Counted from the first letter of the stretch, positions 13,000-64,000 are shown. The stretch: 64,000 nucleotides of DNA from Candidatus Krumholzibacteriota bacterium (GCA_963806035.1 CAWDWO010000007.1:36973-100972), one strand, 5' to 3'. Notes: generated from the sequence alone by a model not told the origin. A program made the numbers and translations.

Positions 13000-13073
13000 G
13001 ATTCCTCATGAAGGCTAGGAGTTCCGCGTTGAAGTGCCTCTCTGGAAAGCATGCAATCCTCACACCACCCCAC

Positions 13074-14669
13074 TCAGTCCGCCCCTCCCAGGCGCAACGA
13101 GAAACCGAGTCCCGCGGACCATTCGAGAAGCTCGCTGCGGTCCCTCACGAGTCGCAGCCAAGCCCCGGCCCTGCATCTGCCATCCCGACGGGCCAGCGCA
13201 CAGAGCAGTCCCGAGGCGCCGGGCTGAAGCCAAGTGCTGGCCAGACCCGCCGTCGCCACCCCGACCGCCCAGGGAGAGGAGCGGTCCCCCCGCGCCAGCG
13301 CCAATACCCCGCGCCAGAACCACGCTCTGCCCTTTTCCAGGCTCAGGGCCAGGAGAGTGGCCACCCCGGCATCGTCCCTTTGCTGGCGAAAGCGCAGTCC
13401 GCGTCGCAGTGCGCCGCCGCGTGCCCTCTCCTGCCAATCCAGTTTGAGGAGGAAGGCTGACGGCCCAGCTTGCTCTTCGTCGACCTGCAGGACGACGGCC
13501 AGGCGTGTCGTGGCCAAGGGCCCCGAGGCCCTCAACTGCCAGCGCTCATCGACGCGCACTGCACCCGGCTTGCCGCGACGGCGCCTCCGCGCCAGAGCCG
13601 CAAAAGTCCAGGCTCCTCCACTCAAACGACCGCTGGTCTGAATCACGCGATGTTCACGGTCCGTGGACTGGCCGGTGATGGGATCCTGACCGGAGGCATC
13701 GCCGGGCCCGGCCTGCGTCAACGCCACCCCCCAGCGCGCCGGGCCTTCCCGAAACTGCAGGGCCGCGCACACTCGATCCGAAGCCGAGGAACCCGGAGAA
13801 AAATCACGCACCCATTCCAGACGGGCTCGTAAGTCCTCGCGCTGCAAGGCGAAAAACAGTCCCGCTTCATCCTGATCTCGAAGTGCCAGCCCCAGCTCCG
13901 TTCCCTTCGAGGGGGCGAAGCGATACCCCACGAAAGCGAGGAAGGGAGCGGCATGGGTGTCCTCTGCTGCGCCGCGGGCCAGAAGGAGATGCCAGCTCTC
14001 GAGTTCGAGTTCGATGCCCCCGCCGCGCCAACTCTCGCCATAGAAACTGAGCCGGGGACGCAGGCGAGTTGCTCCGTTCAGCGAGGGACCGGCGGTTCGC
14101 GAGCGAAGCGAGGGATTTTCCAGCAGGAGGGGCCAGGGAAGCTTGGGGCGAAAGTCACCCACGATCAGTCTGCCCCAGCTCGCACGGTAGCTGGCCGCCG
14201 CGCTGCTCACCGTGCCTGGTCCGGGTTCAGCTTGTGCGAGGATCCTCAATTCATCCCGCTGCACCAGCAATCGAGGACGATGCCGCGCCGCGGCGTCCGG
14301 CTTCCAGGCGCTGCGATCTTCGAACTGGAGTTGGGCCTGATGAACCCGCGGGTGCAAGGAAACGAAAGGAGTCAGGGCCGCGATCCTGGCTTCGTCCATG
14401 CCCGGAATGCTCAGCAGATCCTCTAAAGTGGAGAGACCACCGTGTTCTCGCAGCCCCACGATCGCGCCGGCCAAACCCGCGTCCAGCCAGGGCAACAGGG
14501 CCAACTCTTCTTCGGTGGCCGTATCGAGATCCAAGGGTTCGTCGAGCCACTCCTTCAGTTGATCGATCATTTCGTCGCTTTCCGCAGCGTGGGCCGGATT
14601 CGCGCCTGGCAACAGAGCGAGTGAGAGAAACAGCCACAGGTGGATGCCCGCGCGCCTCATCCGCTTCAT
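13074..14669 (-). CDS. Secreted protein with N-terminal ComEA-like helix-hairpin-helix domain and C-terminal beta-rich (barrel-like) region
   Basis: Signal peptide MKRMRRAGIHLWLFLSLALLPGANPAHA. The HhH motif LDTATEEELALLPWLDAGLAGAIVGLREHGGLSTLEDLLSIPGMDEARIAAL is followed by an Ala/Gly/Arg-rich repetitive C-terminus. Confidence 0.55.
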   Translation of the reverse strand: MKRMRRAGIHLWLFLSLALLPGANPAHAAESDEMIDQLKEWLDEPLDLDTATEEELALLPWLDAGLAGAIVGLREHGGLSTLEDLLSIPGMDEARIAALTPFVSLHPRVHQAQLQFEDRSAWKPDAAARHRPRLLVQRDELRILAQAEPGPGTVSSAAASYRASWGRLIVGDFRPKLPWPLLLENPSLRSRTAGPSLNGATRLRPRLSFYGESWRGGGIELELESWHLLLARGAAEDTHAAPFLAFVGYRFAPSKGTELGLALRDQDEAGLFFALQREDLRARLEWVRDFSPGSSASDRVCAALQFREGPARWGVALTQAGPGDASGQDPITGQSTDREHRVIQTSGRLSGGAWTFAALARRRRRGKPGAVRVDERWQLRASGPLATTRLAVVLQVDEEQAGPSAFLLKLDWQERARGGALRRGLRFRQQRDDAGVATLLALSLEKGRAWFWRGVLALARGDRSSPWAVGVATAGLASTWLQPGASGLLCALARRDGRCRAGAWLRLVRDRSELLEWSAGLGFSLRLGGAD

Positions 14670-15424
14670 CGCGCTTCCCTCCCCTCTGGCCGGGCAAGTT
14701 CCAGCGCGAGATAGGGTCCCGCATCGATACTCGACACCAGAGGGAACGCGAGCGCGAGATTGAGTGAGGAAAATCGCAGTCCCAGATGCAGGCTGCCCCC
14801 CCTTGCGTCACCCCGGTACGCGAGCGAAAGCGGAGCGAGCAGCAGCTCGAGACCCGCGCTCCAAATGCCTCGCTCCTCGAAAGGGGAGTCCTCTCGCATG
14901 AGCGCCGCCGCCCAAGCGCTTCCTTCCAGCTCGAATACGTATGCGGCGCTCGAGGGAAGTCGAACACCTTCATGCTCCAGAGGAAATTCCTGCTCGATAC
15001 CGAAAGCGAAGCCGCGCGCCGTGAGCACTAGAGCCAGTTCACCCCGCGAACTCAGCTCGCTGGCGATCGTCTCCACCTCTCTCTTCTGGCGCTGCACTCG
15101 GGCGTGCACGCGGAACCCGGTCCCGGTGAATCGAAACCCCAGTCCCAGCTCCTGCTCGGAATAGGCTGCCGCGCGCAGCTGGCCGGCAAGAGTCCAGACG
15201 AGAACGGAGGAACTCAGGCCGAAGGCTCCCTCCAACCAGCTCTGACTGGAGGGCGCGAAGCTGACCGGGTTTCCCGCACCCAAGCGCAAACGGGCAGAGG
15301 GTGCGCGCATCCAGCAATCGCCGGGCAGAGCTTCCATGCGCCTCGGACCCGAAAAGGTTTCGGCGTGTGCGCTGAGCTGAAGGATGAAGAGGAGGGCGAT
15401 GACGAGCAGCCCCGGCCACCTCAT
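14666..15424 (-). CDS. Hypothetical secreted protein (Gly/Ala-rich, possible outer-membrane barrel)
   Basis: I chose Met45 as start. This gives the signal peptide MRWPGLLVIALLFILQLSAHA and an ATGA overlap with the upstream gene's stop. The ORF-track start at 15556 is less likely. Overlaps the next gene's start by 4 nt. Confidence 0.45.
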   Translation of the reverse strand: MRWPGLLVIALLFILQLSAHAETFSGPRRMEALPGDCWMRAPSARLRLGAGNPVSFAPSSQSWLEGAFGLSSSVLVWTLAGQLRAAAYSEQELGLGFRFTGTGFRVHARVQRQKREVETIASELSSRGELALVLTARGFAFGIEQEFPLEHEGVRLPSSAAYVFELEGSAWAAALMREDSPFEERGIWSAGLELLLAPLSLAYRGDARGGSLHLGLRFSSLNLALAFPLVSSIDAGPYLALELARPEGREAR

Positions 15425-17058
15425 GGTCGCCGTCCCAGTGCGACCAGCGCCGTCCAGCGACGCGGCGCCAACTCTCCGCCTTCGCTCTGTACCACCACCA
15501 CATAGGCCCCCATGGGAACCCGTTGGCCGCGGCTGGAGCGTCCGTCCCAGATCCACTGCCGCAAATTGCCCCCCGAGGTATCGTTGCCCAGCTCGGCGAC
15601 GGTCGTCCCCAGGAGATCCCTGATCTCGGCCTGGACTCTGAGCCCGCTCAGCTCGGCGTGCAGCAGCACGTGGAGGATGTCTCCTTCGCCGTCGCCATCG
15701 GGACTGAAGGGATTGGGAGAGAGCGCCAGGCCACTCTCTGGGCTGCTGAGGGCGGCGGCGGAATTCTCCTCTCCCGGACTGGGAGAGCCCGGAGAGAGAA
15801 ACCAGGCACTGGGAGCCTCGGGACTGACGAAACCACGTTCCATGCTCCTGCCGGCTTCGCCCACCAAATCGTCGCCGTAGCGAAGTTCGTCCACGACGGT
15901 TCCGCTGTCGTCACGCAAGAGAATCCGGTCCGCGAACTCGCTTCCGCCACTGGAGCTGTTGTTGAGCGAGGGCCATCCACCATCGGGGAGAACGACGGGT
16001 AGCTGCGATGAGAGCGCAAAGACGGATCGAAGTGCCTGCGGATCGGAGGAGAGGAGCGCGAAGCCCTCAGCGGAAAAGCCGAGTCCATCGAGTCCTCGCC
16101 AGTCCTCGGTGGCATCGGTGATCGCCCAGCCGTCGAGCACCTGTGGTGCGTCCGGTTCCCCCTTCAACTCGATCCACTCGGGGTGATCCGCGAGCGGCTT
16201 GGCCATGACCTCGTTCAAGAGAACCGGCCCGGGTCCCACTTGATATCCCAAGCTGGCGACCGCGGTGCTGTCGCTTCCCCAAGAGAGCTGGAAACGATGG
16301 CGGCCGCGGCTCAGCCACGCTTCCACCCGGCTTTGCAGTGTGTCACCGGGAGCGGCCTGAAGGACCTGTTGTTCCAGAGGAGTCGCGTCCAGGCTCCAAC
16401 GCAGCGAGAATTCCTGCTGGGGAGCGAAACCATCGACTTGGGCGGAGAACTCGAGTGCGACCTCTCCGGGCATTGCCAGGAAGGACGGCGAGGCACTCAG
16501 CCGCAGAAGATGCAGACTCTCGGCCCGCGCATTGGGACGGCCCGGAGTGGGAGGACTCAGGGCGGAGAAGTCCGCTCGATTGTCGTCGCTGTCGGCGCCG
16601 TCGGGGATGCGACCCAAACTCTCACCTGAGACATCCGGCGCCGCTTCGCCCTCTCCCAGCCCTTCGATTTCGCCCCAAGCCACTCGGTCGAGGATCGTCT
16701 CGTCGCGAGCCAACCACAGAGCATCCGGACCGTTCTGCAGATTCAGTGCTGCCTCGTCGTCCCTTCCTGCGACCTCGGCCCCACCCACGAGATAGAACTC
16801 ACCCGGTGCCAGACTGAGTCCCGCCTTCGCCGTCCACACCACACTTGGCTGTTCGGGCGCCGCACCATTGACGAAGAGCAAACGGACGCCATCCAGAGAA
16901 ATCGCGGTGTCGCCGTCGGCGTAGAGTTCCACGAACTCCCGGCCCCCGTCACTCCCCTTTGGATCGTAGAGAATCTCGTTGAGAACGAGTTGAGCGTGCG
17001 CGCGGGCGGGAAGCGTGAGACAGAGCAGAAGACCGAGGATGCGAAGCATGTGACGCAC
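15421..17058 (-). CDS. Secreted lamin-tail-domain (LTD) protein with C-terminal FlgD-Ig/T9SS-type sorting domain
   Basis: Signal peptide MRHMLRILGLLLCLTLPARAHA. Two LTD-like modules begin LNEILYDP..G..EFVEL and LLNEVMAKP...EWIELKG. The C-terminal segment LSPNPFSPDGDGEGD...YVVVVQ resembles the Por/T9SS CTD. Confidence 0.65.
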   Translation of the reverse strand: MRHMLRILGLLLCLTLPARAHAQLVLNEILYDPKGSDGGREFVELYADGDTAISLDGVRLLFVNGAAPEQPSVVWTAKAGLSLAPGEFYLVGGAEVAGRDDEAALNLQNGPDALWLARDETILDRVAWGEIEGLGEGEAAPDVSGESLGRIPDGADSDDNRADFSALSPPTPGRPNARAESLHLLRLSASPSFLAMPGEVALEFSAQVDGFAPQQEFSLRWSLDATPLEQQVLQAAPGDTLQSRVEAWLSRGRHRFQLSWGSDSTAVASLGYQVGPGPVLLNEVMAKPLADHPEWIELKGEPDAPQVLDGWAITDATEDWRGLDGLGFSAEGFALLSSDPQALRSVFALSSQLPVVLPDGGWPSLNNSSSGGSEFADRILLRDDSGTVVDELRYGDDLVGEAGRSMERGFVSPEAPSAWFLSPGSPSPGEENSAAALSSPESGLALSPNPFSPDGDGEGDILHVLLHAELSGLRVQAEIRDLLGTTVAELGNDTSGGNLRQWIWDGRSSRGQRVPMGAYVVVVQSEGGELAPRRWTALVALGRRP

Positions 17059-17134: not shown

Positions 17135-19369
17135 TCAGACGAGCCCCCAGCGCCGTCGGAGCATCCACTCCAGACTGAGCAACAGTAGAAGAGGAGCGAA
17201 GAGCTTGAAGCTCGCCCACAGAGGCGTGCGAGATCGAGTCACTTTGAGCTTGGACTTCAAAGGCAAATTGCGCGCCCACTCGCTCAGCTCAGCCCTCGTG
17301 ACCACGCTTCCACCGGTGGAGCGTGCAATGGACGCGAGCTGCGCGAAGTCTACGCCGGGATGCTGATACTCCACCGAGTAGGGATCCACGGCGAGCGAAC
17401 TCCAGGGAGAAAAAATACGGCCCGAACTCTCCTCCAAGGCGAGTCGAAACTGGTAGTGGCCCGCGGGCAGAGGGGGAATCGCGAGCTGTCTGCCTCCGGG
17501 CGGTCCATTTTGTGCCCGCTGCATGAGGGCGCGACCCAATACCGTGGTGTTCGAATCCGCGCCAGCAGAGGGTTCCTTTCTCCACTCGATCCACAGATCA
17601 CTGCTCTCGTCCGGCTGACGACGAGCATCCAAGACCACCGCCCGCAAGAGTGCGTCCTCGCCACGCGCGACCACGGGTCGCGGAAGGATGAGTTGCAGAC
17701 GCTTTCGGCTGGCGCCCTCGGCCAGGTAGTAGATGAGATTGCCCACCAGGGCCCGGTAAACGTCCTCCCCCTCTCGCTCGCCCAGCCGCCAGAAAGACCA
17801 GCTCCACATGGGAGCCGCCGACCAGCATGCCACCGTTCCCTTGGCGCTGCTCTTCAAGCTGAGCAACGGAGTCGTGCCTTCAGAGTCTTCCGCCTGCAGG
17901 AGAACGTCGGCGTCAGGCTTGGCAACGATGCCGTGAACTGCATCCCACAGGGGAGGCATTTGCTCCAGTCGCTCCAGCGGATCCCCCACCGAAGCGGGAA
18001 AGGCGAAGATCGGGCTCGAGATTCCCGCGGGAAGAAGTCGTACGCGATGCCGCGCGCGCTTCCATCGAGAGGCCGAGCTGAGCTGAACCGGCAAGAGTTC
18101 GCTGGCCTCGCGAGACAGCGAGCTGGGCGGCTGCCCGCGAGCCTCACCGAAGAGCACCCAGAGTCCGGCCCCTTCCCGCACCGAGGCGATCATGCCCGGA
18201 GCCCGCTCGCTCAGTTGCGCAAAATCTTCCAGAGAGAGGATGACCCAGGCGTCGACTCCGGCCGCCGCCGTGGCATCCACGGGCGGGGTCCATGTACTGT
18301 CGCTTCCGGCTTTCTGCCATCGATCCACCGCACGGTAGACGCCTTCGACATCGAAGCGTGGATCCTCGGCGAGACGACGCCGCAGAAAATGAAAATCCCA
18401 ACCGGGTCGCGACTGGACGATCATGATGTGCAGACGGTCCTTGAGAACTTCCGCGCCAATCTCGATCGCGTTGTTGTCCTGGAGCGCTTCGGAAGGAAGT
18501 GGGGTCAATCGCAGCACGCGGCGCAGCATACCCAGGCTGTCAGCCCGTACCACGAAACTCAAAGGGATGCGCCCGCCTCCTCTCGGCCAAGAAAAACTGA
18601 GCGTGTCCGGGCTGGCACCACCCTGCAAGATGGCGCGCGCATGTCCCGCGTTGGCGGATTCCACCACCGCCTCGGCCGTTATTTCGATCTGATCGCCGCG
18701 GTAAGCCACCGTGGGATAGTGGACGCGATCGAGACGTAGATCGCCTGGACCATTGCTGTCACCCACGGCGAGCGTGAACACGGGCAGACTGAGGCCGCGC
18801 AGTGAGGGCAACTCCGGATCCGTGCTCCTGCCGTCACTCAAGAGCAGAATCGCCTGCAGATTGTCCTCCAGGTGGGATTGCGCGGCCGACAAGAGGAGCG
18901 CGGGCAGATTGGTCCCCTCCTGCGAGCCTGCCTGCAGCTCGCGATGCAAACGGCGCGATCCTTCCGCGCTGAAAAGCTGTGGCTTTTCCGGCCGCCCGGA
19001 CAGTTGCCTCTGGGCAAGCTCGGCCAGATCGCGCGCGTCCTGCAGGCGTGTCGAACCGTCGTGGGATTTCAAAGTCATGCTGCCGCTGTCATCCACCAGC
19101 GTGAGCACGCTGGGCGAAAGCCGCTTGCTGTGACGCGAGAAGAGAACCGGCTCGAGAATCAAGAACAGCAGGAGCAGGAGTGCGCTGGCACGCAGAAGGC
19201 GCAGGATCCAGCGGCGGCTCGTGTTGAGCGAGGGCTGGGTGCGATGGTACGCGAGATACGATACGGCGAGTCCGACGATCAAAAGCAGGATGACCAGTGA
19301 CCAGTCGAGGGCGCCCTTGGGCCAGACGCTCAGTTTTGCCAAGGGGAGAGAAAGGGATGAGAGGGTCAC
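17135..19369 (-). CDS. BatA-like N-terminal transmembrane + von Willebrand factor A domain protein
   Basis: 744 aa. Two N-terminal TM helices are followed by a vWA MIDAS motif (LTLVDDSGSM). The long C-terminal extension contains a third hydrophobic segment. Confidence 0.65.
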   Translation of the reverse strand: MTLSSLSLPLAKLSVWPKGALDWSLVILLLIVGLAVSYLAYHRTQPSLNTSRRWILRLLRASALLLLLFLILEPVLFSRHSKRLSPSVLTLVDDSGSMTLKSHDGSTRLQDARDLAELAQRQLSGRPEKPQLFSAEGSRRLHRELQAGSQEGTNLPALLLSAAQSHLEDNLQAILLLSDGRSTDPELPSLRGLSLPVFTLAVGDSNGPGDLRLDRVHYPTVAYRGDQIEITAEAVVESANAGHARAILQGGASPDTLSFSWPRGGGRIPLSFVVRADSLGMLRRVLRLTPLPSEALQDNNAIEIGAEVLKDRLHIMIVQSRPGWDFHFLRRRLAEDPRFDVEGVYRAVDRWQKAGSDSTWTPPVDATAAAGVDAWVILSLEDFAQLSERAPGMIASVREGAGLWVLFGEARGQPPSSLSREASELLPVQLSSASRWKRARHRVRLLPAGISSPIFAFPASVGDPLERLEQMPPLWDAVHGIVAKPDADVLLQAEDSEGTTPLLSLKSSAKGTVACWSAAPMWSWSFWRLGEREGEDVYRALVGNLIYYLAEGASRKRLQLILPRPVVARGEDALLRAVVLDARRQPDESSDLWIEWRKEPSAGADSNTTVLGRALMQRAQNGPPGGRQLAIPPLPAGHYQFRLALEESSGRIFSPWSSLAVDPYSVEYQHPGVDFAQLASIARSTGGSVVTRAELSEWARNLPLKSKLKVTRSRTPLWASFKLFAPLLLLLSLEWMLRRRWGLV

Positions 19370-19517: not shown

Positions 19518-19551
19518 GAAACAAAAGCGCCGGCGGAGTCCGCCGGCGCTC
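19518..19551 (-). terminator. Rho-independent terminator downstream of the STAS gene
   Basis: A perfect 10-bp GC stem (GCGCCGGCGG/CCGCCGGCGC) with a 3-4 nt loop is followed on the minus strand by TTTTGTTTCC. It sits 25 nt after the stop of the 19576..19935 gene. Confidence 0.75.
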
Positions 19552-19575: not shown

Positions 19576-19935
19576 TCAGGTCGTCGCCGATGCGCTCACG
19601 GCCTCTTCGACCGTGGCGAAGGCCTCGAGGATGTTCTGGAATTCCAACAGTTCGAACACTTCGTAGACGTCGGGAACCATGCCAACCAAGCGTAAGTCGC
19701 CGCCGTTTTCGCGGATCTCGCGAATGACGCTGATGAAGATGCCCCAGCCGGCCGAGGAGATGTAGGAGACCCGTGAGAGGTCCACGATGATCTTGTAACG
19801 CTTCGACTGAATCAGGGACTTGATCTCCCTCTCGAATTCCGCCGAGGTGGTCGTGTCGATGTAGCCTGCCACTTCCAGGACCTGCTGATCCGGGCAGGAT
19901 TCGTGCGCCTTCGAAATGACCATGATCCCATCCAT
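19576..19935 (-). CDS. Anti-sigma-factor antagonist (STAS domain, SpoIIAA/RsbV-like)
   Basis: 119 aa. The STAS fold signature is ...LEVAGYIDTTTSAEFEREI.....YKIIVDLSRVSYISSAGWGIF. The conserved phosphorylatable Ser lies in the YISSAG context. Confidence 0.85.
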   Translation of the reverse strand: MDGIMVISKAHESCPDQQVLEVAGYIDTTTSAEFEREIKSLIQSKRYKIIVDLSRVSYISSAGWGIFISVIREIRENGGDLRLVGMVPDVYEVFELLEFQNILEAFATVEEAVSASATT

Positions 19936-19991
19936 CGAAAGCCCATCTCTTTCTATGCTTGAGCTACCTTAGCTAAGCTATTGCAGCAGAA

Positions 19992-22527
19992 TTAGTTAGG
20001 TATTTTTCCCGTTCCGGTGTCCACGGGCTCCATTCCCGGCTCCTGCGACACTGGCGGCTGCTCTTCATCCGTGTGCAAGCTTTGGTCCAAGCCATCGCCG
20101 TGATCGGTCTGATTCTCCAAAGGGGCCCCCTTCTGGGGATTCAGCCCGCGGCGCCGCAGATAGAGGCGCCGTTTGGACTCGTTGCTGAGGTCCAGGCGCA
20201 CCAGCTCGTCGTAGACGATCTTGGCATTGGCCTCGTGACCCAGCTCGCAGAGGTGATCGGCCAGGCGTTTGGCACCCAGGCCTGGATCCTTTCGCACCAG
20301 CTCCAGAATCGCCTCGCGCCCTTCGACGGTGAGGCGCCGCATTCCGGACTGCGAGGCCCGGCCCGCGAGGGCCTCCTCTCCCCCGCGTTCTCTCATCCGT
20401 CGCCAGCGGTAGAAGGTGGAAACGGAGGTGCCGTAGCTCTGGCAGGCCTCCTCGATGCTCATCCCCTCGAGTTCCACCATGTCCAGCAAGCGCTGCCGGC
20501 GCTCGATCTCCAGCGAGGCCGGCCGCAACTTCTCCTTCACCGCCACCACCGTGATGTCGTCGTTTTGCGCGTTGCCTCCGGTGAAGGCCGCGATGTCCTC
20601 GTTGAACGCGGCGATGAATTCCTCCGCCGTCCGTCCCGCATTCTTGCGCACACACTCGATGAGGCGCTGCTCGCCGTACTGCTCACGTGCCGCATTCATC
20701 GCTTCGGTCACGCCATCGGTGTAGATGAGAAGCAGATCGTCCTGTTGCAGCTGGACCTTCTCCACTTCGATCGTCTTGGAGAACAGCTCCGGATCAGGCA
20801 GCGAAATCCCCACCGGGAACCCGGCTGGATTCAAGAAGAAGACCTCATCGGTTTCGATGCGATACAAGAGCATCGGATTGTGACCGGCCGAGGAGTAGCT
20901 GATCACGCGATTGCGCGAATCGAGGATGATGTAGAACAGGGTGATGAACATCCCGCGGCGCATGTCCTCGGTAATGAAAGTGTTGACGCGGCTCATCACG
21001 TCGCTGGCCGAGTGATTTCCCCTCGCCTCCATGCGCATGGCGGTGCGGATCATCGTCATCACCAGACTGCCCGGGATTCCCTTGCCCGAGACGTCCGCGA
21101 CCACGATTCCCACCGTGTCCTCGTCCACCGCGAAGAAGTCGTAATAGTCGCCGCCGACCTCCGCTGCCGCGCGGTACATCGCTGCGATCTCGTAACCGGA
21201 GAGATCCGGCATCGCGGTCGGCAACAGGGTGTGTTGAATCTCCCGCGCGAGCTGCATTTCCTTCTGGAGTCGTTCCTGCTCGACCAAATGCGATTGTGCG
21301 TGACGGAACTTGGATGCAATTTCGTTGAACGCGGCCGCGATCGTGGAAATCTCCTCGGGACCGTGCACCTCGATGTCCTCCTCGAGCACGCCGTCCCCGA
21401 TGGCCAGCACGCCCTCGGTGAGCTGCTGGATGGGGCGTACGAAGAGATTTACCATCACGAGTATGAGCAGAATTCCCACCACCAGGATGATCAGCCCGAT
21501 TCCCATGGCGTGCAAAAGCGCCGCGCGATAGTGCTGCTCCAGGTCCGAGGTCTTCAGTCCCAGCACCACTCGACCCAATTCGACCCTCTTCCCGGATGGC
21601 CCTTCGATGTCCACCGGATAATTCAGCTGCAACACTCGTCCCGAGTCGAATTGGATGCGCGTCCATTCTCCCGCGTTCTTTCCATGATCGATGAGCCGGC
21701 CTGGCTCGGGATGCCAAGAATTGAAGAGATTGTCCAGGACGCTGTCGGCCCAAATGCTGCCGTCTTTCCCGTGCACTACTCGAGCGAAGGCGATGGTGGA
21801 ATCGTGACGCGCAAGTTCGCTGACGCCCTGTTGCAGAAGCGTCCGTTCCACCGAATAGGGATCGCTGCTCGCGAGCACGCTCCTGGACTGCACCGCCAGA
21901 TCACGCGCGAGCGCCTCAATCCGACTGAGGTCTTGATCGAAGATGGCCTGCCGCTGTCGAAAGTGCACGACCGAGAGGGCGAGGATCACCAGGAGTGCCA
22001 GCCCGAAGGAGGCGCGCAGGGTGAAGCGCATTCTCAAACTGCGGTGCAGAGCGGAGAACTGAATACCTGGAATCCAGCGATCGATGGACGGACGCCGATC
22101 CATGCACATCCGGAGTTCGTTGCTTCCGTCGACGGTCGTGTAGTCCACCTCGTCCATGATCCGATTGATGAGGTAGATTCCGAGCCCGCCGCGCTTCCCG
22201 ATCGCCACGTAGTGGTCCAGGTCCGGGACTGCAACCGAGCCAAAGTCGAAGGACTCACCGGTATCCTTCAGGATGATCTCCACCTGACCGGCGAAGTACC
22301 TTACCCGGATGGTGATCTCGCCACCCTGATTGTGATAGGAATGCTGGATGATGTTCGTACAGGCTTCGTCCACCGCGAGCTTGAAATTGGCGGTGTCCGC
22401 CGGATCGAATCCGGCCTGCATGCAGATGCGTGCCACGAAATCGCGTACCTGAGCCAGGTGGCTCTCGCGGGCCTCGATGACGAGCTCCGCCCTCTTGATC
22501 CGGCCGCCGATCACTTGGGTCCGTCCT
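19992..22527 (-). CDS. Membrane sensor fusing an RsbW-like HATPase serine kinase, periplasmic domain, HAMP, a PP2C (SpoIIE/RsbU-like) phosphatase and a C-terminal transposase-type HTH
   Basis: N-terminal GHKL anti-sigma kinase motifs (VDEACTNIIQHSY...GGLGIYLI). TM1 ASFGLALLVILALSVV, a ~170 aa loop, then TM2 AMGIGLIILVVGILLILVMV. A HAMP linker precedes a PP2C domain (GGDYYDFF..VADVSGKGIPGSL...YTDGVTEA). The C-terminal MSIEEACQSYGTSVSTFYRWRRMRERGGEEAL matches the IS630/IS481-OrfA type HTH. I set the start at the GTG near 22527; the ORF-track start at 22814 overlaps the upstream gene and looks like read-through. Confidence 0.75.
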
Positions 22528-24526
22528 TCTCGCCGGCGCCCTGCTCGAGGCGGTCGATCCGTGCCTTGGCCTCTGCAATGTTGTTCTGAGCGCCCTGGTT
22601 TCCGGGATCGATCTTCAAAATCTGCTCCCACTGTCGAATCGCTTCTTCGTAGTTGCCATCGGTGAAGGAACGGAGGCCCGCCAGGTAGTACTGGCGCACC
22701 TGCTTCTCCTCGCTCGGGCTGAGGCTGGCCGGTCCCGACCTGCGGTGGGCGATCTGGTCGAGAAGCGCCAAGGCTTGCGCATGCTTGGGCTCCCGCTTCA
22801 AAACCTCGCGGCAAAGCGCTTCAGCCTGGTCCAGCTCGCCTTTCGAGAACGCCTCGAGCGCTTCGGTGAAGCGGCGCTCCTGTGCCAGCTCCCCGCGGGC
22901 GCGTTCGGCGTCGGCCTGCGCTTGCTCGCTCTCATGGCGAGCGGCATCCAACTCCGCCTTCCAGCGCTTCAGGGCCGCGGCGGGAGCAGGATTATCCGGG
23001 TCGAGAGAGGCTACGACGCTCCAGGCATTCAATGCGGATTCCCAGTCGCCTGCCTCCTCCGCCGCGGTGGCTCGTGAGGATGCGCTTGCCATCGCGCTGG
23101 CCTCGAGGTCCTCCACCTGCTGACGGAGACGCGGCAGCATGGGATAGTCCGCAGCGAGATCGCCCAGAGCGTTCAATTCCGCTCGCGCTTTCAGCGCATC
23201 GTGTTGGTCCAGCGCGGCCCGGAGTTGATTTTCGGTGTCTTCGATCCGGAGCGTGCGCCGCTGCTCGTCGGCCTTTTGCTGCGTGACGCGCTTTTCCAGC
23301 TGCTGCAGGCTTGCCAGCTGGGTCCTCAGAGAATCATCGGCCACACCAAGACTGCGGGCCCGCGCCAGGCTCTTCTGCGCGTCCTGGAGCGAATCCCGGC
23401 TGAGCGCATCCTGGAAATCCTGCACCGCACTCGTGATTTGGGCCTTGCGCCAGTTCTCCACGGCTTCCATGCGCGCCTGCATCAACTCTTTGGCCCGCAG
23501 TTCGTCGCGGTGACGGCGCCGATCCTTCATGTCCTGGCCGAAGTACCAGGAGAGGCTCAAGAACTGGGATGATCCCAATTCTCCGCCCGAACGAAACGCA
23601 TAGTCCACGGAGTAGTCCCGCCAGCGTCCACCCAGACCGGCGTTGAAATGGCCATCGTCGTAGCTGAGACGCAGGGTGTAGAGTCCTTGGTACTCGGCTT
23701 CCGCGCCCAGTCCGAGACGCTTGGCGGCGTACTGTGGTTTGTCGTAGACCGCGGCCAACTGGAGAGCCGTGTTCTCGCTGAATTCATGCCGTTTGCTCAG
23801 GGCAAAGCGCTGCGCATAGGGCAGCGTGTCTTCGCGCTCGATGAGCCTGAAGCTCGGTGCGATCAGATTCTGGTATACAAAGGAGAGCCGGACTCCCCCG
23901 AGACGCGGAGGGACCCAGGCCAGGCCCAAGTCCATGCCACCGCTGGTGCTCTTCTCTTCCAGATCCAGGCTGTGGATCTTGGCGCTCGTGCCCAAATCGA
24001 GCCTGCCGCCGAGGTACGGCAGCCTTCCCCCATATCCGTAACTCAAGAAAAGCTGTGTCTCTCCGTAGCTGATGCTTCCGGTGGGTCGGCTGGTACTGTC
24101 GTAGGTTTCGATGTCCCCCAGTTTGAGCCGCAGGAAGCCGATGCCGAAGCCTCCGGCGTTCAGAGTAGGATAGGCGAGTCCCAAGTAGCCGTAGGAGGCT
24201 CCGCCATCGAGACCGTAAAGACGGTTGTAGCTGAAGGTGAGCTGTGATCCTCGAGCATGGGGCAAGAGTGCCGGGTTCCAGAAGCAGGCGCTGGCATCAT
24301 CGGCCAGGCCCACCATCGTCGATCCCAAACCCACTCCGCGCGCGGTAGGACCGAGCTTGAAAATAGACTCGGTGCCTCCACCGTCGTCCGCGGCTCGGGC
24401 CAATCCCGCAGGGAAGAAGCACATGAGCAGAAGCAGCAGAAGGGCAGAAGCCGCGGCTCCGCGCGCGTTCTCACAGCGCGAAGTGTGCCTCGAGGTGGGC
24501 ACGAAGTTCGGATAGCCGCGCCTCAT
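22511..24526 (-). CDS. PorV-like (UPF0164/T9SS shuttle-type) outer-membrane beta-barrel with C-terminal coiled-coil/TPR extension
   Basis: Signal peptide ALLLLLLMCFFPAGLARA. The N-terminal motif GARGVGLGSTMVGLADDASACFWNPALL matches the PorV family consensus G.GGA.VA..DDASA..WNPAGL. The ~340 aa barrel region is Gly/Tyr-rich. The C-terminal ~330 aa is charged coiled-coil plus TPR-like repeats (YYLAGLRSFTDGNYEEAIRQWEQILKIDPGN). The start was chosen to give an ATGA overlap with the adhesin stop at 24523-24526. Confidence 0.6.
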   Translation of the reverse strand: MRRGYPNFVPTSRHTSRCENARGAAASALLLLLLMCFFPAGLARAADDGGGTESIFKLGPTARGVGLGSTMVGLADDASACFWNPALLPHARGSQLTFSYNRLYGLDGGASYGYLGLAYPTLNAGGFGIGFLRLKLGDIETYDSTSRPTGSISYGETQLFLSYGYGGRLPYLGGRLDLGTSAKIHSLDLEEKSTSGGMDLGLAWVPPRLGGVRLSFVYQNLIAPSFRLIEREDTLPYAQRFALSKRHEFSENTALQLAAVYDKPQYAAKRLGLGAEAEYQGLYTLRLSYDDGHFNAGLGGRWRDYSVDYAFRSGGELGSSQFLSLSWYFGQDMKDRRRHRDELRAKELMQARMEAVENWRKAQITSAVQDFQDALSRDSLQDAQKSLARARSLGVADDSLRTQLASLQQLEKRVTQQKADEQRRTLRIEDTENQLRAALDQHDALKARAELNALGDLAADYPMLPRLRQQVEDLEASAMASASSRATAAEEAGDWESALNAWSVVASLDPDNPAPAAALKRWKAELDAARHESEQAQADAERARGELAQERRFTEALEAFSKGELDQAEALCREVLKREPKHAQALALLDQIAHRRSGPASLSPSEEKQVRQYYLAGLRSFTDGNYEEAIRQWEQILKIDPGNQGAQNNIAEAKARIDRLEQGAGEKDGPK

Positions 24527-27500
24527 CGTGTCACCGCGATTCTGAAGTAGATCTCCCCGCCGGCCGCACGCACACGACAGATGTAGACCCCGTTCCGCAC
24601 CTCTTGACCGAGACCGTTGCGCCCGTCCCACAGCACATCACCGTCATGAATTCCAGGCTCCGCTTGCGAACTCCCGGCGGCAAAGCTCCACTGGCGAACT
24701 CGCTTTCCCAAAAGATCGAAAATCTCGATCTCGACCGGACCGCTCTGAGGGAGTGAATACGAGAGAGTGGCGGGCTCTCGACTCGGAACGAAGGGATTGG
24801 GATAGCTGTGAGCATCGAACTCGGAAGACGCCTTCGCCGTGACACTCGGACCGGCCAGGATGAGCGAGTGGCCGCCCCCCTCTTCGTCGAGTAAGGCATA
24901 GCTGAGCGCAAATCCCCCGGAGTCCAGGATGGAAGCGCTGCCGCCGTCCAACGCAAAACGGAAGGAGACATAGTCCGCATCGGCCTTGGCCTGCACCCCG
25001 ACGCGGAACGCGGCCGAGCTGTCCGAATCGATGACGAGGTCCACGGGAACGATCACGGGATTACCATTGACCGCCGCGCTCCAGTTCTGAGTGCCGTCGG
25101 TACGCCGCACCTGAATCGTCTGCAAGAAGCTCGACGGATTGGCGAAGGGCTGTCCCGCGTCGTCGACCAGGTTCAGCGCGAGCTGGGTGAAGTGCACCGC
25201 TTCGGGGTGACCGTTGCTGATGTGAACGGCAAAGCGCTCGTAGATGCGGTCGCTACCGATCAGCGGGCCGGTGTCGCTCAAGTCGCTGATTTCAAGCCGC
25301 AGTGGATCGGCCAGAATCGATAGCGCGACCGAACTCTCGGCCGTCGCTTCGCCGGCCGGCAATCCGCTGTTCTCGTCTAGGGGGATCTGCTCGGCGGTCA
25401 GAGTGATCTTCTGTACGCCCAGGTCCAAGCTGGTCGGACCCTGTAATCTCCACACGACCTCGTCGCTCGGATCGACGAGATCGACGCTGGCCGTCTTGCC
25501 ATCGAGAATGCTGAAGCCGGAGGGAACCGAAAGGTGCAGCCGTGCTGGCGGTAGGGTTTGCGCACTGCCACTGAGTACAAAATTTCCATGAAGTTCGACG
25601 ACCGCTCCCGGCGGCAGTTCTCCCCGATCGCGGGCACTGTTGGGCTCCAGAATCGTCAGTCGAGGAACGGCATGGGCGGCTTCCACGACCTGAAGATTCA
25701 CGCTCGCGCAGGTATCCGCCAACACGCTGCTGCTCTGCACGTCAGTGGCGTGTGCCACCGTGCGCAGCAGCAGGCCTGCCGCCGGGGTATTCGGGCAGAG
25801 AACCTGCCAGTTCACCGTGGTCTGTCCATCCGTCAGCATCTGACGGGCATTCCCTCCCACCAGCGCCAACTGCGGCGGCAAGAGCAGCTCGAGAGATCGC
25901 TGTTGCAAATTCGCTGGCCCGTCCACTTCTCCCTGCAGGGTGAAGGTCTGTCCCGTACTCAGAACGGTATCCTGAGCGCCCTGGGGCGAAATGATGCTCA
26001 AGCTGCAAGTATCGAAGGCGGTCCCGCCGAAAACCTCGAGCTGCAAAGTGCGGCTGGAGGCGCTGGTGAGCGGCCGCGCATCGGGATCGTTGGCGTCCAG
26101 GTCCACGCGCGAGAGCGCCGCCACCAGGTCGACGGTCTGTACCGTCGAAGGGGCCACGAGTCGAATCGTCGCTTCGGGATTGGAAGGATCGAGCTGAACC
26201 GGAAGAGTGCTTTGGGAGTCCAGAGTGAAACCCTGCAGACTGTTGAAATCGACCTCCACCGGCAACCAGGACCCGGATTGCTGTACGGAAGCATCCTGAT
26301 CCACCGCGAAACGCACGGAAAAAATCTGGCCTGGCGATACGGACATGGCGAGCGGATCGACGCTGTCCACGAGTTCTGCGCGGAAGCTGAGGGAGACTGG
26401 CCGCTGAACCTGAAGATTCGCCAGATCGTCCAGCGGACTCTGGGGCACGATTTCCTGCTGAGTAGTGGAGGACAATGCGCGCACGATCAAAGCCCGCAAG
26501 GACTCCGGTCCTGGAGTGGTCGTGATGCTCGTGTCGAAGTACAGGGTATCGATCTCGCTCGACTCCAGGCGCGGAACCGAAATGTCCGCCGCGCTCGAAG
26601 CGGGCGTCGCGCTTCCAGCCAAACGCACGGTGAGCGAATCGATGGCCTCGCCGGCGTTGTTGCCCACGACGACCCTCACCCCGATGTGCTGGCGGGTGTT
26701 GACTTGACTGAGAGGGGCACTCGGGTTCAGGGCAGTGGTCGAAAGAATGCGCAATCCGGCCGGATCGAAGAGGGTGAGCGTACCGTTCGGCAGAGGCAGA
26801 TCCGAGTCGAAGGGCAAACCGTTCTGTGTGCCTCGCACCCGCAGGTAACCCTGCGGGGTGCCCAAAATTAGATCCGAGGGCAAGGCCAGAGGGGAGAAGG
26901 CGAGCTGGGTGGTGCCCGTGGGCACGCTCGCCGGCGAAAGCGGATCGAGCACCGCCCCGATGCGCGCGCCCTGAGGCTCGCCGAAGTCAAGACGTGTCGT
27001 GAGGGGATCGAGTACGAGCTGTGCCTCTCCCTGGTTCGTCAGCGAGAGTTTGAACCCGACCGTCGATCCACGCAGGGCCGCGGCTGGATCGAGAGGCGTG
27101 GCAGCGAGGACCAGATCAGCCGGCGTTTCGGTGCTGATCGCGTCGACCTGAATGAGATCCGCGGAGAAGGGGAAGCTGTTCTCCGTGCCTGCCAGGTGCA
27201 GCTGTAGGTCCTGGCTCTGGCTCCCCAGGGCCGCATCCACCGTGGTGGGACCGAAGCTCAGCTCGGCTTCCTGGCCGGGTGCGAGAGCCAGAGAGCTGCT
27301 CAAGGCGCCGCTCCAGAGCCCGCCTCCAAAGCTCGCGAAGGAACTGGCCGCGTTCAGGGAAACCGTGGCGCCACCGTTGTTCTTGACCCGTGCCTTCAAG
27401 AGTAGATTGGCCCCGTGGTGGATTCGAGACGGGGTCACGCTTTTGTCGACCAGCTCGAGCTGTGATGCGCTGCTCACGCTGAGCGGCGTGGCCGAGGAGT

Positions 27501-30500
27501 CCGCAGGTGCCGTGAACTCGGCCCCTGCTACCGTCCCCGTGACGCGCGCCACGAAGCGGTAGTTCCCCGGCGGGGTGGCACTCCCCACTCTGACTCGCGA
27601 AGAGAGATCACGCTGACCACCGGCCGCGACTGCTCCCAAGGGGTCCTGATCGACCAGGGTGAAATCCGCCGCCGGTGAGGACTGCAATGCCAGCTGCGAG
27701 ATTCCGACGGAACCCGCGCCGAGGTTTTCCACCGTGACGCGAACGTTGAGAGTATCCCCCGGTACCGCCTGCGTCTCGTGACTCACCGAGCGAATGGCAA
27801 GGCCGCTGACCAGAAACGAGCCCTGCGGAAGCACGATGAAGCTCGAAACTGCTTGCCCGTGCGTGTCCTGCCCCGCCAGTTGCAGCGTGGGCCGGAACGA
27901 GCCCAGAGCGAAACTCGCGGGGAGGGTCGCCGTGCTGAAATTGAGGACTTGGCTCGACGAGGCCGGCACCACGGTATCGCTGGGGAGCGAGGCGGCGAGG
28001 ACCCCTCCCTGTCCATCCTCGATCTTCAGTTGCGAGAGTCCAGCGTCCAGGATTGCGTCGACGCCCCCGGTATTCTGTAGCGTGATGCTGAAGTTTAGAT
28101 TCTGCCCCGGCACCGCGGCCGCGGGAGTGAGCGCGCCATCGAGCGCCAGTGAGGCAGGCGACACGAAGATCGCGTCCGCGCTGCCCATGGCGGCCGCGCT
28201 CGCGAAGGAGACGGTGACCGTTCCGGCAGTGAGAGGAGACGCCAGCCGCAGGCCCACCATTCCCGATCCGTCGCTCAGCCTTTGAATCCCGCTGCGCTGG
28301 GGATCGAGATCGTCGGAGATGATCGCTCCTCCGTTTGCGCTCACGTCCACTGAGCTTCCCGCCGCCACCACGTTTCCGAATGCGTCGCGAATCGGTCCCG
28401 CGCTCAGCCGCGTCACCGAGACCCCATTGGCCGTGTTCTCGCTCGGATCCACGATGGGCACCGGAATCGTTCCCGAGGGCGAAGCGGGAACCACCAAGAG
28501 ATTGTTCAGACTGCCCCCAACCGCGGGCAGGGCGGCCAGGCTCACGTCCAGGGTCAAGGGACCGGCCTGCTGGGCGCTGAGATCCACCGTGGCTTTCCCC
28601 GCCACCAGCGAAGCCGGAGAAGGTGTCACGCTCAGCACGGATGGACTCGAGTTGAACGCCAGCTCGCCCGCCAGGTCGACCTCGTTGCCCGCGGAGTCCC
28701 TGGCGACGATCGTGAGAGAGTTGGGAGTTCCCGCGGTGAGAAGCGTGTCGCTGATCGAAAGCTCGAGATGGTCCGCGGAGCCTGGCAGAGCCTCTACCGT
28801 CCAGCGAACGGTCTCCAGCGAGCCGGGCGTGCCGTCCAGGATGGAGGCGCCGACCCGGTGCTCTCCGCTGCTCGTGGAAAGATGGAGTACAAAGGACAGC
28901 TCTCCGTTGGCATCGGTCGAAGCGAGACCATCATCCGTGGGTACGCTGGGGTCTTCCAGACTCGCTCCCGAAGGAGCGCTCAAGAGACTCAGACGCACGG
29001 GAACCCCACTGACCGCATTGCCATAGCTGTCGGCGACTCGCGCGAGCAGCGTGACCGTCGTTCCGGCCGGCGCGCTCTGCAGCGTGTCACCCACGGCGCT
29101 GAGCCGGAAGGCGGCGCCCGCCGACACTTCGATCAAAGGGCTCTGGGCGTTGATTGAAGGCTGCGATTTCAGGCTTGCCGTGACGGAAAACTGCTCCACC
29201 AGGGTGTCCCGCGCACTGGCCGAGAGAAGGCCCGCGTTCAGCGCGCCTTCAGAGGGAGTCAGGACGATTCCGGTTCCGGTGGAACTCAGCTCGACGGAGT
29301 CCGCTGCCGCCAGCACCCGGTTGCCCGCTGCATCGAGGGCGGTGATCGTCAGGGGAAGAGCCTGACCCGCTATCACGCTGGTCTGCGAGGGAAGCACGGC
29401 GAGCGAGGCAATGGGTCCGGCCACGGTATTCACCACGAAAAGGACCGTCTCCCGCGCGACGGGACTGCCATCCAGAATTCCCACTCGCAGGCGCAGGGTC
29501 TGCACCGTCGAGTCGGTGAGTACAGTGAAAGTCGCATGGCCGTTGGCGTCGCTGCTTGCGGGGCCGGCCTGGAGTGTGCCTCCCTCCAGCTGCAGGACAT
29601 TCAGCGTCTGGTTGCCAACTGAGTTGCCCAAGGCATCCAGCACCTGCACCCCGAGGTCCACGCTCGAACCCGCGGTCACGCCGGACAGGGTATCCGCGCC
29701 CGTGCTCACCAGTTCGTAGGCACTGCCCGAGCCCACACTCAGAAGCGGACCCAGATAGCCCTTGCCCTTGGCGCTGAGACGAATGTGATAGCTTCCCGCG
29801 GTGTCGATGCGCTGCAGGGAAGTCGAAAAGCTTCCCCCGATGAGCTGACCCTCAGAGACGTTGAGCGGAAGCGGGACCACCACGGTGCTGTCCGCACCGT
29901 CGACCAGGTCGAAGGAAAAGCTGTCTGATGCGGCGCTGGCCAAATTTCCAAAGGCGTCGTACGCCGTTGCACTCAAGGAGAAGGGGGCTCCCGCGGTCGC
30001 GGTCGCGGGATAGGCGAGCTGATACTCAGCCACCATCGTGCCGGCCAAGATTTGCAGGCTCCCGCTATCTCCGTCCAAGAGCGCCGCCGAATCGTCCGCG
30101 CTGAAGGCGTGCGTACCGGCCAAACTTCCCTGGTAGTAGACCGTGGCCTGTCCGCTGACCGCGAGGTTCAGCGTATCGAGATACGGTCCGCCGCTCTGCG
30201 CCGAGAAAACCAGACCGGTCGCGGGATCTGCGTGCACGATGACGGTGGCCGAAGAGCTCGAACTCAGATTGGCGAAGCTATCCACCAGCGACAGCCCGAA
30301 GCTGCCTTCGACTCCAGCCTCGACCGCGCCCGCGGGCGGGGAGAGCCGAATCGCGCTCGCGTTCCCCACTACCGAGCTATAGACGAGATCGTTGACCGCG
30401 CCCGAGGAGACTTGACTCGAGCTAGCATCCAGAACGTCCTGAAGTCCGGCCGTGGAGGGCGCGCGGTACATCACGTGGATCAGCCCGTTCCCATCGGTCA

Positions 30501-33234: not shown

Positions 33235-33753
33235 TCAGGATGCGTCCTGGTTGCCCAGCTCGTCCAGTTTGCGCATCCCCTCGAGCATCAGATAGTCGAG
33301 GCTGACGTCGAGCAGAATGTCCTCGTTTTCCGGGTAAATCTGCGAGTAGAAGGCGAAGTTGCCCTCCTCGATCGTCACCAGCTGAAAGACGATTTCCTCG
33401 ATCTGACTGCGCACCGCTTCCTTGAGTTGCTGGTCGGTGATCGAGCCCACCTCGACCAGGATCGTGCCTATCCTCTTCCCGCCGGCCAGACCCGCCTTCA
33501 TCTTCGCGCCCTCGAGTTGGGAGCGCTCCAGGAGCCCGCTGCGCACCAGGTAATCTCCCAGGCGCTCGGTCCGGGCGTCGGTGCGCGCGTAGATCAGTCG
33601 CCCCTGGTGAAAATAGACCCGAGCCCGTTGCTCACAGCCGTGAAGCACCAGTTTACCCGTGGCCTGCGCCAGGTGCAGGAGCTGAAAGATGTTCGCCACT
33701 CCGAAGAGTTCGATTCGGCCCCGCAAATCCAAGTTTCTCTCCCCCGTGAACAC
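33235..33753 (-). CDS. DUF4388 domain protein
   Basis: 172 aa. The G.L....(V/I).....Q.L.....TG.L.........G.IYF..G motif (FTGERNLDLRGRIELFGVANIFQLLHLAQATGKLVL...RVYFHQGRLIYA) is typical of DUF4388 (PatA-N-like). Confidence 0.7.
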   Translation of the reverse strand: MFTGERNLDLRGRIELFGVANIFQLLHLAQATGKLVLHGCEQRARVYFHQGRLIYARTDARTERLGDYLVRSGLLERSQLEGAKMKAGLAGGKRIGTILVEVGSITDQQLKEAVRSQIEEIVFQLVTIEEGNFAFYSQIYPENEDILLDVSLDYLMLEGMRKLDELGNQDAS

Positions 33754-63888: not shown

Positions 63889-64000
63889 GACAAGGTTCCT
63901 GACCTGGGGTACGGATCTCAGCGACCGGCTCGCTGATCGGTTGACTTCACCCCTCCTTCGACATGGGCGGTGGCAAGCCCGCCCCACCGCGTGCGCTCTG

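Follow-up and report, generated by a model that had tools for sequence, protein, structure and literature searches.

Partner switching, built from a PP2C phosphatase, a STAS antagonist, and a GHKL kinase, is a major design of bacterial signaling outside the two-component systems. A 64,000-nucleotide (nt) stretch of DNA from a Candidatus Krumholzibacteriota bacterium (GCA_963806035.1, CAWDWO010000007.1:36973-100972), hereafter called the window, raises the question of whether a single membrane protein can carry both opposing enzymes of such a switch together with a helix-turn-helix (HTH) of transposase type, and what this combination might control. An initial annotation, made from the sequence, had described such a sensor gene followed by a gene encoding a STAS protein. 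We find a real two-gene signaling module that closes an operon for a cell-surface adhesin; it encodes a probable bifunctional membrane kinase/phosphatase and its likely STAS target. Coordinates are those of the whole window and residue numbers those of the sensor, which is 840 amino acids (aa) long.

The sensor lies in a minus-strand open reading frame (ORF), 19992-22814, with zero internal stops, the first 300 nt of which are shared with the preceding gene (22511-24631). The probable start is a GTG at 22514, where the sensor gene and the preceding gene overlap by 4 nt (GTGA, with the TGA stop of the latter). As this start gives 840 aa, the length of the two closest relatives P0001 (92% identity) and P0002 (86%), both aligned over 99-100% of their length, 19992-22514 was taken as the sensor gene. 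The initial annotation was right in proposing a single intact gene, as neither a frameshift nor a stop separates the kinase, phosphatase, and HTH parts; its size of 845-940 aa is corrected to 840 aa and its upper coordinate, 22527, was off by about 13 nt. The features of the sensor gene, all on the minus strand, are the following.

19992-22514, minus strand: sensor gene, 840 aa plus stop (uninterrupted ORF; GTG in the GTGA overlap; same length in P0001 and P0002)
22104-22478, minus strand: RsbW/SpoIIAB-type GHKL serine kinase, aa 13-137 (Pfam, NCBIfam, Foldseek, conserved motifs)
21957-22025, minus strand: predicted transmembrane (TM) helix 1, about aa 164-186 (hydropathy peak; long helix 160-215 in the AlphaFold2 model)
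21522-21956, minus strand: predicted periplasmic domain, about 145 aa, alpha/beta, Cache/PAS-like (predicted local distance difference test score, pLDDT, >90 in AlphaFold2; weak sCache_3_2 in homologues)
21441-21521, minus strand: predicted TM helix 2, about aa 332-358 (hydropathy peak; helix 322-374 in the AlphaFold2 model)
21315-21455, minus strand: HAMP domain, aa 354-400, then a long coiled helix to about aa 430 (Pfam 1e-8; helix 387-430)
20535-21125, minus strand: SpoIIE/RsbU-type PP2C phosphatase, aa 464-660 (Pfam 7e-49, Foldseek, invariant Asp)
20145-20522, minus strand: bipartite HTH of transposase N-terminal type, aa 665-790, two three-helix bundles
19995-20126, minus strand: acidic C-terminal tail, aa 797-840 (pLDDT <50; net charge -9; 12% mean identity)

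Profile searches with hidden Markov models (HMMs) and structural matches agree on a fusion in one polypeptide and on the order of its parts: RsbW-type GHKL serine kinase, TM1, periplasmic Cache/PAS-like domain, TM2, HAMP, SpoIIE/RsbU-type PP2C, HTH, and acidic tail. The N-terminal kinase predicted by the initial annotation is confirmed by Pfam HATPase_c_2 (aa 13-137, E = 2e-28) and by NCBIfam, in which this region is nearest RsbW (3e-22). The predicted C-terminal HTH is likewise confirmed by HTH_23 (aa 668-716, E = 6e-8) and HTH_28 (E = 2e-7), both exceeding their gathering scores; HTH_32 (aa 700-758, E = 7e-7) stays under its own. Between the two, Pfam identified HAMP at aa 354-400 (E = 1e-8) and SpoIIE at aa 464-660 (E = 7e-49). 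The central part consists of TM, Cache-like, TM, and HAMP segments and has no Pfam match to Response_reg (REC). Among NCBIfam models the HAMP-PP2C part is nearest SiaA (2e-19; aa 339-659), and we rejected the sensor as a SiaA orthologue (NF038263), since this match reaches 69.3 bits, far under the cutoff of 700. Two details of the earlier description were revised: the stretch between the two TM helices exists and measures about 145 aa by hydropathy instead of about 170, and the transposase-type HTH is not at the very C-terminus, as it spans aa ~665-790 and is followed by a 44-aa disordered acidic tail.

The kinase carries the N-box residues E50/N54, the D84xG86 motif, and G109-G110-L111-G112, and the phosphatase the metal-binding residues D456, D474, D600, D652, and D653. 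All these catalytic residues are invariant in an alignment of 21 homologous sequences. In a larger alignment of 121 sequences the PP2C residues again show no variation and conservation of the kinase residues is 90% or more, the lower value being due to the inclusion of N-terminally truncated fragments. With the catalytic signatures all kept, both enzymes look active. An AlphaFold2 model built from the 121 sequences (mean pLDDT 80.9) has high confidence in the kinase and periplasmic domains and in the HTH region (aa 665-790) and leaves aa 797-840 disordered. It predicts for the periplasmic domain a PAS/Cache-like fold of two helices and a six-strand sheet (pLDDT >90); sCache_3_2 matches in homologues fall slightly under the gathering score (2.2e-6 in L014, 3.5e-4 in P0033). 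The HTH region is modeled as seven helices, that is, two three-helix bundles and one extra helix. Foldseek comparison of the model with the PDB (TM-scores normalized to target length) gave as top match the RsbU and RsbW domains of Rv1364c (3ke6, E = 1.9e-12). The N-terminus matched RsbW (6m36/6m37, TM-score 0.87-0.91) and SpoIIAB, and the PP2C part SiaA (6k4e, TM-score 0.81) and the phosphatase domains of RssB and SpoIIE. Sequence and model together show a predicted topology in which kinase and PP2C are both cytoplasmic and attached to opposite TM helices, with the Cache/PAS-like domain facing the periplasm.

Homologues of the sensor are numerous. A search with the window protein identified 1695 proteins at E <= 1e-10. 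A second search, seeded with a Calditrichia member, identified 1337 at E <= 1e-60, all derived from metagenome-assembled genomes (MAGs) or metagenomes, with no cultured host among them. The 120 best homologues of the 1695 were classified with custom domain HMMs: 100 are long forms of about 1400 aa, organized as kinase-PP2C-HTH followed by three STAS domains, 17 are short forms with kinase-PP2C-HTH, and 3 are fragments. Not one of these 120 is a kinase-PP2C fusion lacking the HTH. On representatives, Pfam recognized HATPase_c_2, TM, a weak sCache_3_2, TM, HAMP, SpoIIE, HTH, a linker, and three STAS domains. We also surveyed loci by tblastn in one genome per species and applied the domain HMMs to the ORFs of 84 loci. 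Wherever kinase and PP2C share an ORF whose C-terminal part is present, the HTH is present too. The MAGs bearing the fusion are labeled Latescibacterota/Krumholzibacteria, Eisenbacteria, Calditrichota, Ignavibacteria, KSB1, Zixibacteria, FCPU426, and, in one case, Omnitrophota. The remaining surveyed loci, among them the unrelated loci from L020 upward, lack the HTH and encode PP2C, STAS, and kinase in separate genes of the ordinary kind; the kinase-TM-HAMP-PP2C fusions that tblastn with residues 3-660 had seemed to reveal in Planctomycetota, Spirochaetes, Sumerlaeota, and others are in fact such separate genes. In two family members, L057 (1871-5671, 1267 aa) and L011 (6082-10089, 1336 aa), the extension after the HTH ends in TPR repeats, not STAS domains.

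Mean identity to the window protein is highest for PP2C (71%), followed by HAMP (63%), kinase (54%), and HTH (38%); the periplasmic domain (25%) is the least conserved structured part and the tail is at 12%. This distribution of domains among homologues indicates that the HTH has been a constant component since ancient times and that the fusion is an old family present in several phyla. Databases name its members "SpoIIE family protein phosphatase", "anti-sigma factor antagonist", or "RsbU/anti-sigma regulatory factor/transposase". The initial annotation did not recognize the architecture as described, and a full-text literature search, with most subscription journals outside its scope, found no paper describing it.

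The second gene of the module and the end of the unit are formed by three elements, also on the minus strand.

19936-19991, minus strand: 56-nt gap between the sensor and STAS genes, with the palindrome CTTAGCTAAG at 19968-19977
19576-19935, minus strand: STAS protein, 119 aa, motif DLSRVSYISSAGWG (PF01740, E = 4.5e-21; NCBIfam anti-sigma factor antagonist, 5e-19)
19525-19551, minus strand: intrinsic terminator closing the adhesin-PorV-sensor-STAS unit (12-pair stem with 10 G-C pairs, 3-nt loop, T-rich tail)

This is the arrangement that had been proposed, with the STAS gene 56 nt 3' of the sensor and a strong terminator behind it. The terminator (19551-19525) is by far the strongest terminator-like site within 17 kb, and the sensor and STAS genes are predicted to be co-transcribed. 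The STAS protein carries a YISSAGWG motif, in which S60 or S61 is the candidate phospho-serine. The window contains no second STAS besides this 119-aa gene. In short-form loci the STAS gene is directly 3' of the sensor, except in L014, where a ParA-like gene intervenes; the window STAS is orthologous to the stand-alone STAS adjoining the sensor in all of them. In long-form loci its best match is the last stand-alone STAS (E = 7e-35 to 6e-42), and the STAS domains fused to the sensor are weaker matches, with E between about 1e-10 and 1e-26.

The palindrome CTTAGCTAAG had been put forward as an operator for the HTH, for which it proved a poor candidate. Its single occurrence in the window does not exceed chance, as one or more matches with no more than 1 mismatch turned up in 26 of 100 shuffled sequences. 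In L001 (86% identity) the gap sequence at this spot is unrelated, the ribosome-binding and start region downstream is conserved, and the HTH recognition helix differs from that of the window by one conservative F-to-Y change. The palindrome is also absent from all 84 fetched loci. We therefore dropped it as a conserved operator.

As for the HTH itself, its assignment to the transposase N-terminal type was upheld. Residues 673-783 match the N-terminus of IS481 transposases (NF033577, 5.5e-14, model positions 2-109 of 284), followed by IS630 (NF033545, 8e-8) and IS3 (9e-8). It belongs to the same bipartite HTH-HTH family (HTH_23/28/32) as the transposases of IS481, IS630, and IS3. Unlike IS481 and IS630 transposases, the sensor is single-copy and syntenic, its HTH is fused to a signaling protein, and neither Pfam nor NCBIfam detects an rve, DDE, or DDE_3 catalytic domain in it. 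The identity of the whole protein as a transposase was rejected, given the missing DDE domain, a score of 52 bits against the IS481 cutoff of 224, and a fixed position in an operon that is syntenic across phyla.

Several properties of this module suggest contact with DNA. It is basic in 24 family members (net charge +5 to +16, pI 9.5-10.5), and the kinase, periplasmic, HAMP, and PP2C parts of the window protein are all acidic. Within the recognition helix, S697, T700, Y702, and R703 do not vary in either the 21- or the 121-sequence alignment. A separate model of the HTH (pLDDT 83) shows two sub-domains joined by a flexible linker. The fold search with this model gave weak matches, none of them significant (E >= 0.16); the list is headed by the bipartite DNA-binding domains of TnsB and MuA, then Pax paired domains and Mos1/SETMAR, and consists exclusively of DNA-binding HTH domains. 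PDB sequence searches with the HTH, as a single sequence and as a profile, returned spurious three-helix matches (antibody chains, protein A) and one weak match to Lin0861. From sequence and model, we rate DNA binding by the HTH as possible, at slightly less than even odds.

The HTH profile, compared with 1.84 billion representative proteins, gave 2758 matches at E <= 1e-3 and 326 at E <= 1e-10. The nearest relatives outside the family are tandem double copies located at the N-terminus of family-2 glycosyltransferase proteins of 760-2000 aa; other tandem relatives are HTH-only proteins of about 300 aa. Examples of these tandem proteins are P0192, P0201, P0162, P0165, P0205, and P0217, and two short HTH-only proteins carry candidate-phyla-radiation labels (Microgenomates, Pacebacteria). 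None of the 10 tandem-HTH proteins checked has a transposase catalytic domain, which indicates that this HTH subtype has been recruited repeatedly into non-transposase proteins. The sensor family clearly exemplifies the recruitment of a transposase DNA-binding module into signaling.

Upstream, the operon comprises two further genes, which connect the module to the cell surface.

22511-24631, minus strand: protein with a PorV/PorQ-family outer-membrane domain, a coiled coil, and a C-terminal TPR (NCBIfam PorV_fam, NF033709, 1.4e-25, at cutoff; Pfam TPR); the start coordinate 24631 is the ORF limit only
24523-33075, minus strand: giant immunoglobulin-like adhesin of 2850 aa, heading the unit (Pfam Big_1, Invasin_D3, CARDB)

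The PorV-like gene is directly 5' of the sensor in all loci with that flank, across phyla, and the start/stop overlap between the two genes is kept in related loci. A homologue of the giant adhesin gene precedes the PorV-like gene in loci labeled Krumholzibacteriota/Latescibacterota, Eisenbacteria, Calditrichota, Ignavibacteria, and KSB1. The order adhesin, PorV-TPR, sensor, STAS is kept in the close relatives L001-L003, the long-form loci L004, L005, and L008, and the Eisenbacteria, Calditrichota, Ignavibacteria, and KSB1 loci. By eye, the C-terminal end of the adhesin resembles a type IX secretion sorting domain. The PorV-like/TPR protein may be a periplasmic partner of the sensor. In the long-form loci, as in L004 (14254-17315), a gene for a ParA/MinD-like ATPase comes after the sensor, then a small ORF, a gene for a TPR protein, and a pair of stand-alone STAS genes, and in the Ignavibacteria locus L014 the intervening ParA-like gene is at about 12815-13590. 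The lineage of the window is without the ParA-like gene and the associated long-form genes.

On the 3' side of the terminator we found genes for a membrane protein of 744 aa, a protein with both a lamin-tail domain and a type IX-like C-terminal domain, and three proteins without clear families. Four minus-strand genes there make up a second conserved set (17135-19369, 15421-17058, 13074-14669, and 11410-12999), whose products are the 744-aa membrane protein (no known family), the lamin-tail protein, a helix-hairpin-helix/GspK-like protein, and a 529-aa protein. Only in the Krumholzibacteria/Eisenbacteria group are the first two genes found next to the module. In L001 (12998-15389) two gene calls, of 475 and 302 aa, correspond to the 744-aa protein, which could reflect a frameshift or a real split. 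At the other end of the operon, between a pyruvate phosphate dikinase gene and the adhesin gene, a 172-aa DUF4388 protein (2.6e-29) is encoded at 33235-33753, minus strand. Its two R-[LI]-G-x-x-L-V-x-x-G motifs are reminiscent of the c-di-GMP-binding MshEN motif. No DUF4388 homologue was found in the other loci, and nothing indicates that the gene is a member of the conserved cluster.

Several known systems share parts of this organization. The best structural match, Rv1364c of Mycobacterium tuberculosis, also combines an RsbU-like PP2C and an RsbW-like GHKL kinase in one polypeptide, and bears a fused STAS domain as do the relatives of about 1400 aa. It differs in having the phosphatase before the kinase, in being soluble, in lacking a TM sensor, HAMP, and HTH, and in belonging to the SigF network. 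The SiaABCD system of Pseudomonas aeruginosa likewise uses a TM sensor with HAMP and PP2C (SiaA) to control a small partner and surface or aggregation behavior; its kinase SiaB is however a separate protein, its target SiaC is not a classical STAS, and it has no HTH. The canonical RsbU/RsbV/RsbW-sigma module is not what we observe here, because a sigma gene is missing from the locus and the two enzymes are encoded by the same ORF.

The layout matches that of SypE of Vibrio fischeri, to which the sensor had been likened at the outset and in which a regulatory domain separates the serine kinase at the N-terminus from the PP2C at the C-terminus (PMC3610818). SypE, which controls biofilm formation, phosphorylates and dephosphorylates the STAS protein SypA under REC control (PMC3610818; PMC8256260). 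The likeness, judged by domain layout and not by sequence alignment, extends to the kinase with its conserved ATP-binding Asn (here N54), to the C-terminal PP2C (SpoIIE, 7e-49), and to a single STAS target encoded in a cell-surface/biofilm locus without a sigma factor (PMC3610818; PMC8256260). The regulator of SypE is a cytoplasmic REC domain fed by a phosphorelay, whereas it is replaced here by TM1, the Cache-like domain, TM2, and HAMP; moreover, SypE has no HTH. By analogy with SypE-type enzymes, we infer that the sensor would modify a serine of the STAS protein. A combination of an anti-sigma-type GHKL kinase and a STAS protein with HTH domains is found in CapK/CapS, where DNA binding is under the direct control of STAS phosphorylation and no sigma factor takes part (EMBO J 2026, PMC13373217). 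Single-stranded DNA activates CapK, a soluble HTH-STAS-GHKL protein, and CapS is a STAS-wHTH repressor (PMC13373217). This pair has no phosphatase or membrane sensor, carries another type of HTH, and is located 5' of anti-phage operons. It was rejected as the identity of the module, since domain order and genomic context differ. In the long-form relatives, the HTH placed directly before three STAS domains recalls the STAS-wHTH arrangement of CapS.

Taken by analogy with these systems, the sensor and its STAS protein would form a kinase/phosphatase-STAS switch under periplasmic control, a reading to which we assign a probability of roughly 0.65. A periplasmic or envelope signal, possibly relayed via the neighboring PorV-like/TPR protein or the adhesin, would shift the balance between the kinase phosphorylating the STAS serine and the phosphatase removing the phosphate. 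Because the kinase is tied to TM1, and PP2C to TM2 through HAMP and the coiled helix, a single TM movement could set the two activities reciprocally. The output might be carried by the unphosphorylated STAS, by the HTH, or by both, and its most likely target would be the adjacent type IX-type adhesin locus, at the level of expression or of activity. The HTH would most likely bind DNA and so make the sensor a membrane-tethered regulator without need for a sigma factor. As three STAS domains are fused behind the HTH in most relatives, these would hold the whole switch in one polypeptide. A bolder proposal, which we consider doubtful, is that the domesticated transposase HTH replaces the sigma factor, that the sensor toggles its own kinase and phosphatase via TM1 and TM2, and that the phosphorylation state of the STAS decides whether the HTH is freed for DNA of the adhesin promoter, a mechanism that would be shared across much of the Fibrobacteres-Chlorobi-Bacteroidetes (FCB) superphylum. 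The STAS would then act in trans in the window lineage and as three copies in cis in most relatives, and either the kinase domain or the STAS domains would release the HTH.

Several observations weigh against these proposals. The link between the module and the adhesin is one of gene order. Conservation is lower in the HTH than in the catalytic domains (38% mean identity vs 54-71%), and in the Calditrichota clade the HTH is often under the precomputed Pfam thresholds. No DNA target was found, and the palindrome in the gap is not conserved. All family members come from uncultured organisms, and the kinase domain might sequester a sigma factor encoded elsewhere.

This last point leads to an ordinary sigma partner switch with a remote sigma gene, in which the kinase would be the anti-sigma factor and the HTH an accessory. 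The kinase is indeed closest to RsbW and SpoIIAB, and the window contains a sigma-70-family gene (63022-63987, minus strand; regions 1.2, 2, 3, and 4), the only one detected among its larger ORFs. That gene is located 40 kb from the module, just 5' of genes for an M23 peptidase and an AmiC-like amidase, which bears out the earlier remark that no sigma factor is adjacent. In all 20 fusion-bearing loci, no sigma-70-type gene of groups 1-3 was found within 10 kb of the module by a scan with a group 1/2-like query, which ECF (extracytoplasmic function) sigma factors could escape. Together with the position of the module inside an adhesin operon and the well-documented sigma-less STAS switches (SypE/SypA, SiaABC, CapK/CapS), this makes a remote sigma factor distinctly unlikely.

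Somewhat more weight, though still little, can be given to an HTH that does not bind DNA and serves in protein interaction, for example as a sigma-region-4-like decoy or client held by the kinase and freed by unphosphorylated STAS, or as a docking site for the STAS or the ParA-like ATPase. The HTH accompanies the kinase-PP2C fusion in every case, no DNA site proved to be conserved, weak Sigma70_r4_2 matches occur (E = 0.014 in the window, 8e-4 in L006), and the HTH domains of sigma-54, sigma-H, and sigma-L are among the fold matches; a ParA/MinD-like gene is 3' of the sensor in L004 and L014, and the N-terminal HTH of CapK, itself of partner-switch type, has no detectable signaling role (PMC13373217). 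At such levels of similarity, however, any HTH resembles sigma region 4, and the module is strongly basic and placed by its sequence in the DNA-binding HTH families of transposases. The best family matches being transposase N-termini, an accidental origin of the HTH, as an IS481/IS630 remnant, a frameshift-fused neighbor, or an assembly artefact, was considered as well. The ORF is intact, and the same fusion is found at the same position in the 120 best homologues and in several phyla, with invariant recognition-helix residues, no DDE/rve domain, a single copy in the window, and synteny kept. Such an accident is therefore ruled out for practical purposes. We retain as the preferred reading the kinase/phosphatase-STAS switch under periplasmic control.

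The individual parts of this sensor and the logic of the partner switch are familiar. What is new is their combination: opposing enzymes on one TM sensor, an HTH domesticated from a transposase, in many members three fused STAS domains, and a link to a PorV-like protein and a giant adhesin that is fixed across several phyla. How sigma-less partner switches deliver their output is still unclear; the target of SypA, for instance, is unknown (PMC8256260). The sensor family offers a natural experiment in this respect, in which a single chain unites the kinase, the sensor, and the phosphatase with a candidate output through DNA binding and, in many members, with three antagonist domains. If the HTH does replace a sigma factor, a single membrane-tethered polypeptide would carry a periplasmic signal to the promoter of the adhesin operon. 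As the module is locked to a giant adhesin and a PorV-like protein across several phyla, the family probably governs surface attachment in its uncultured hosts.

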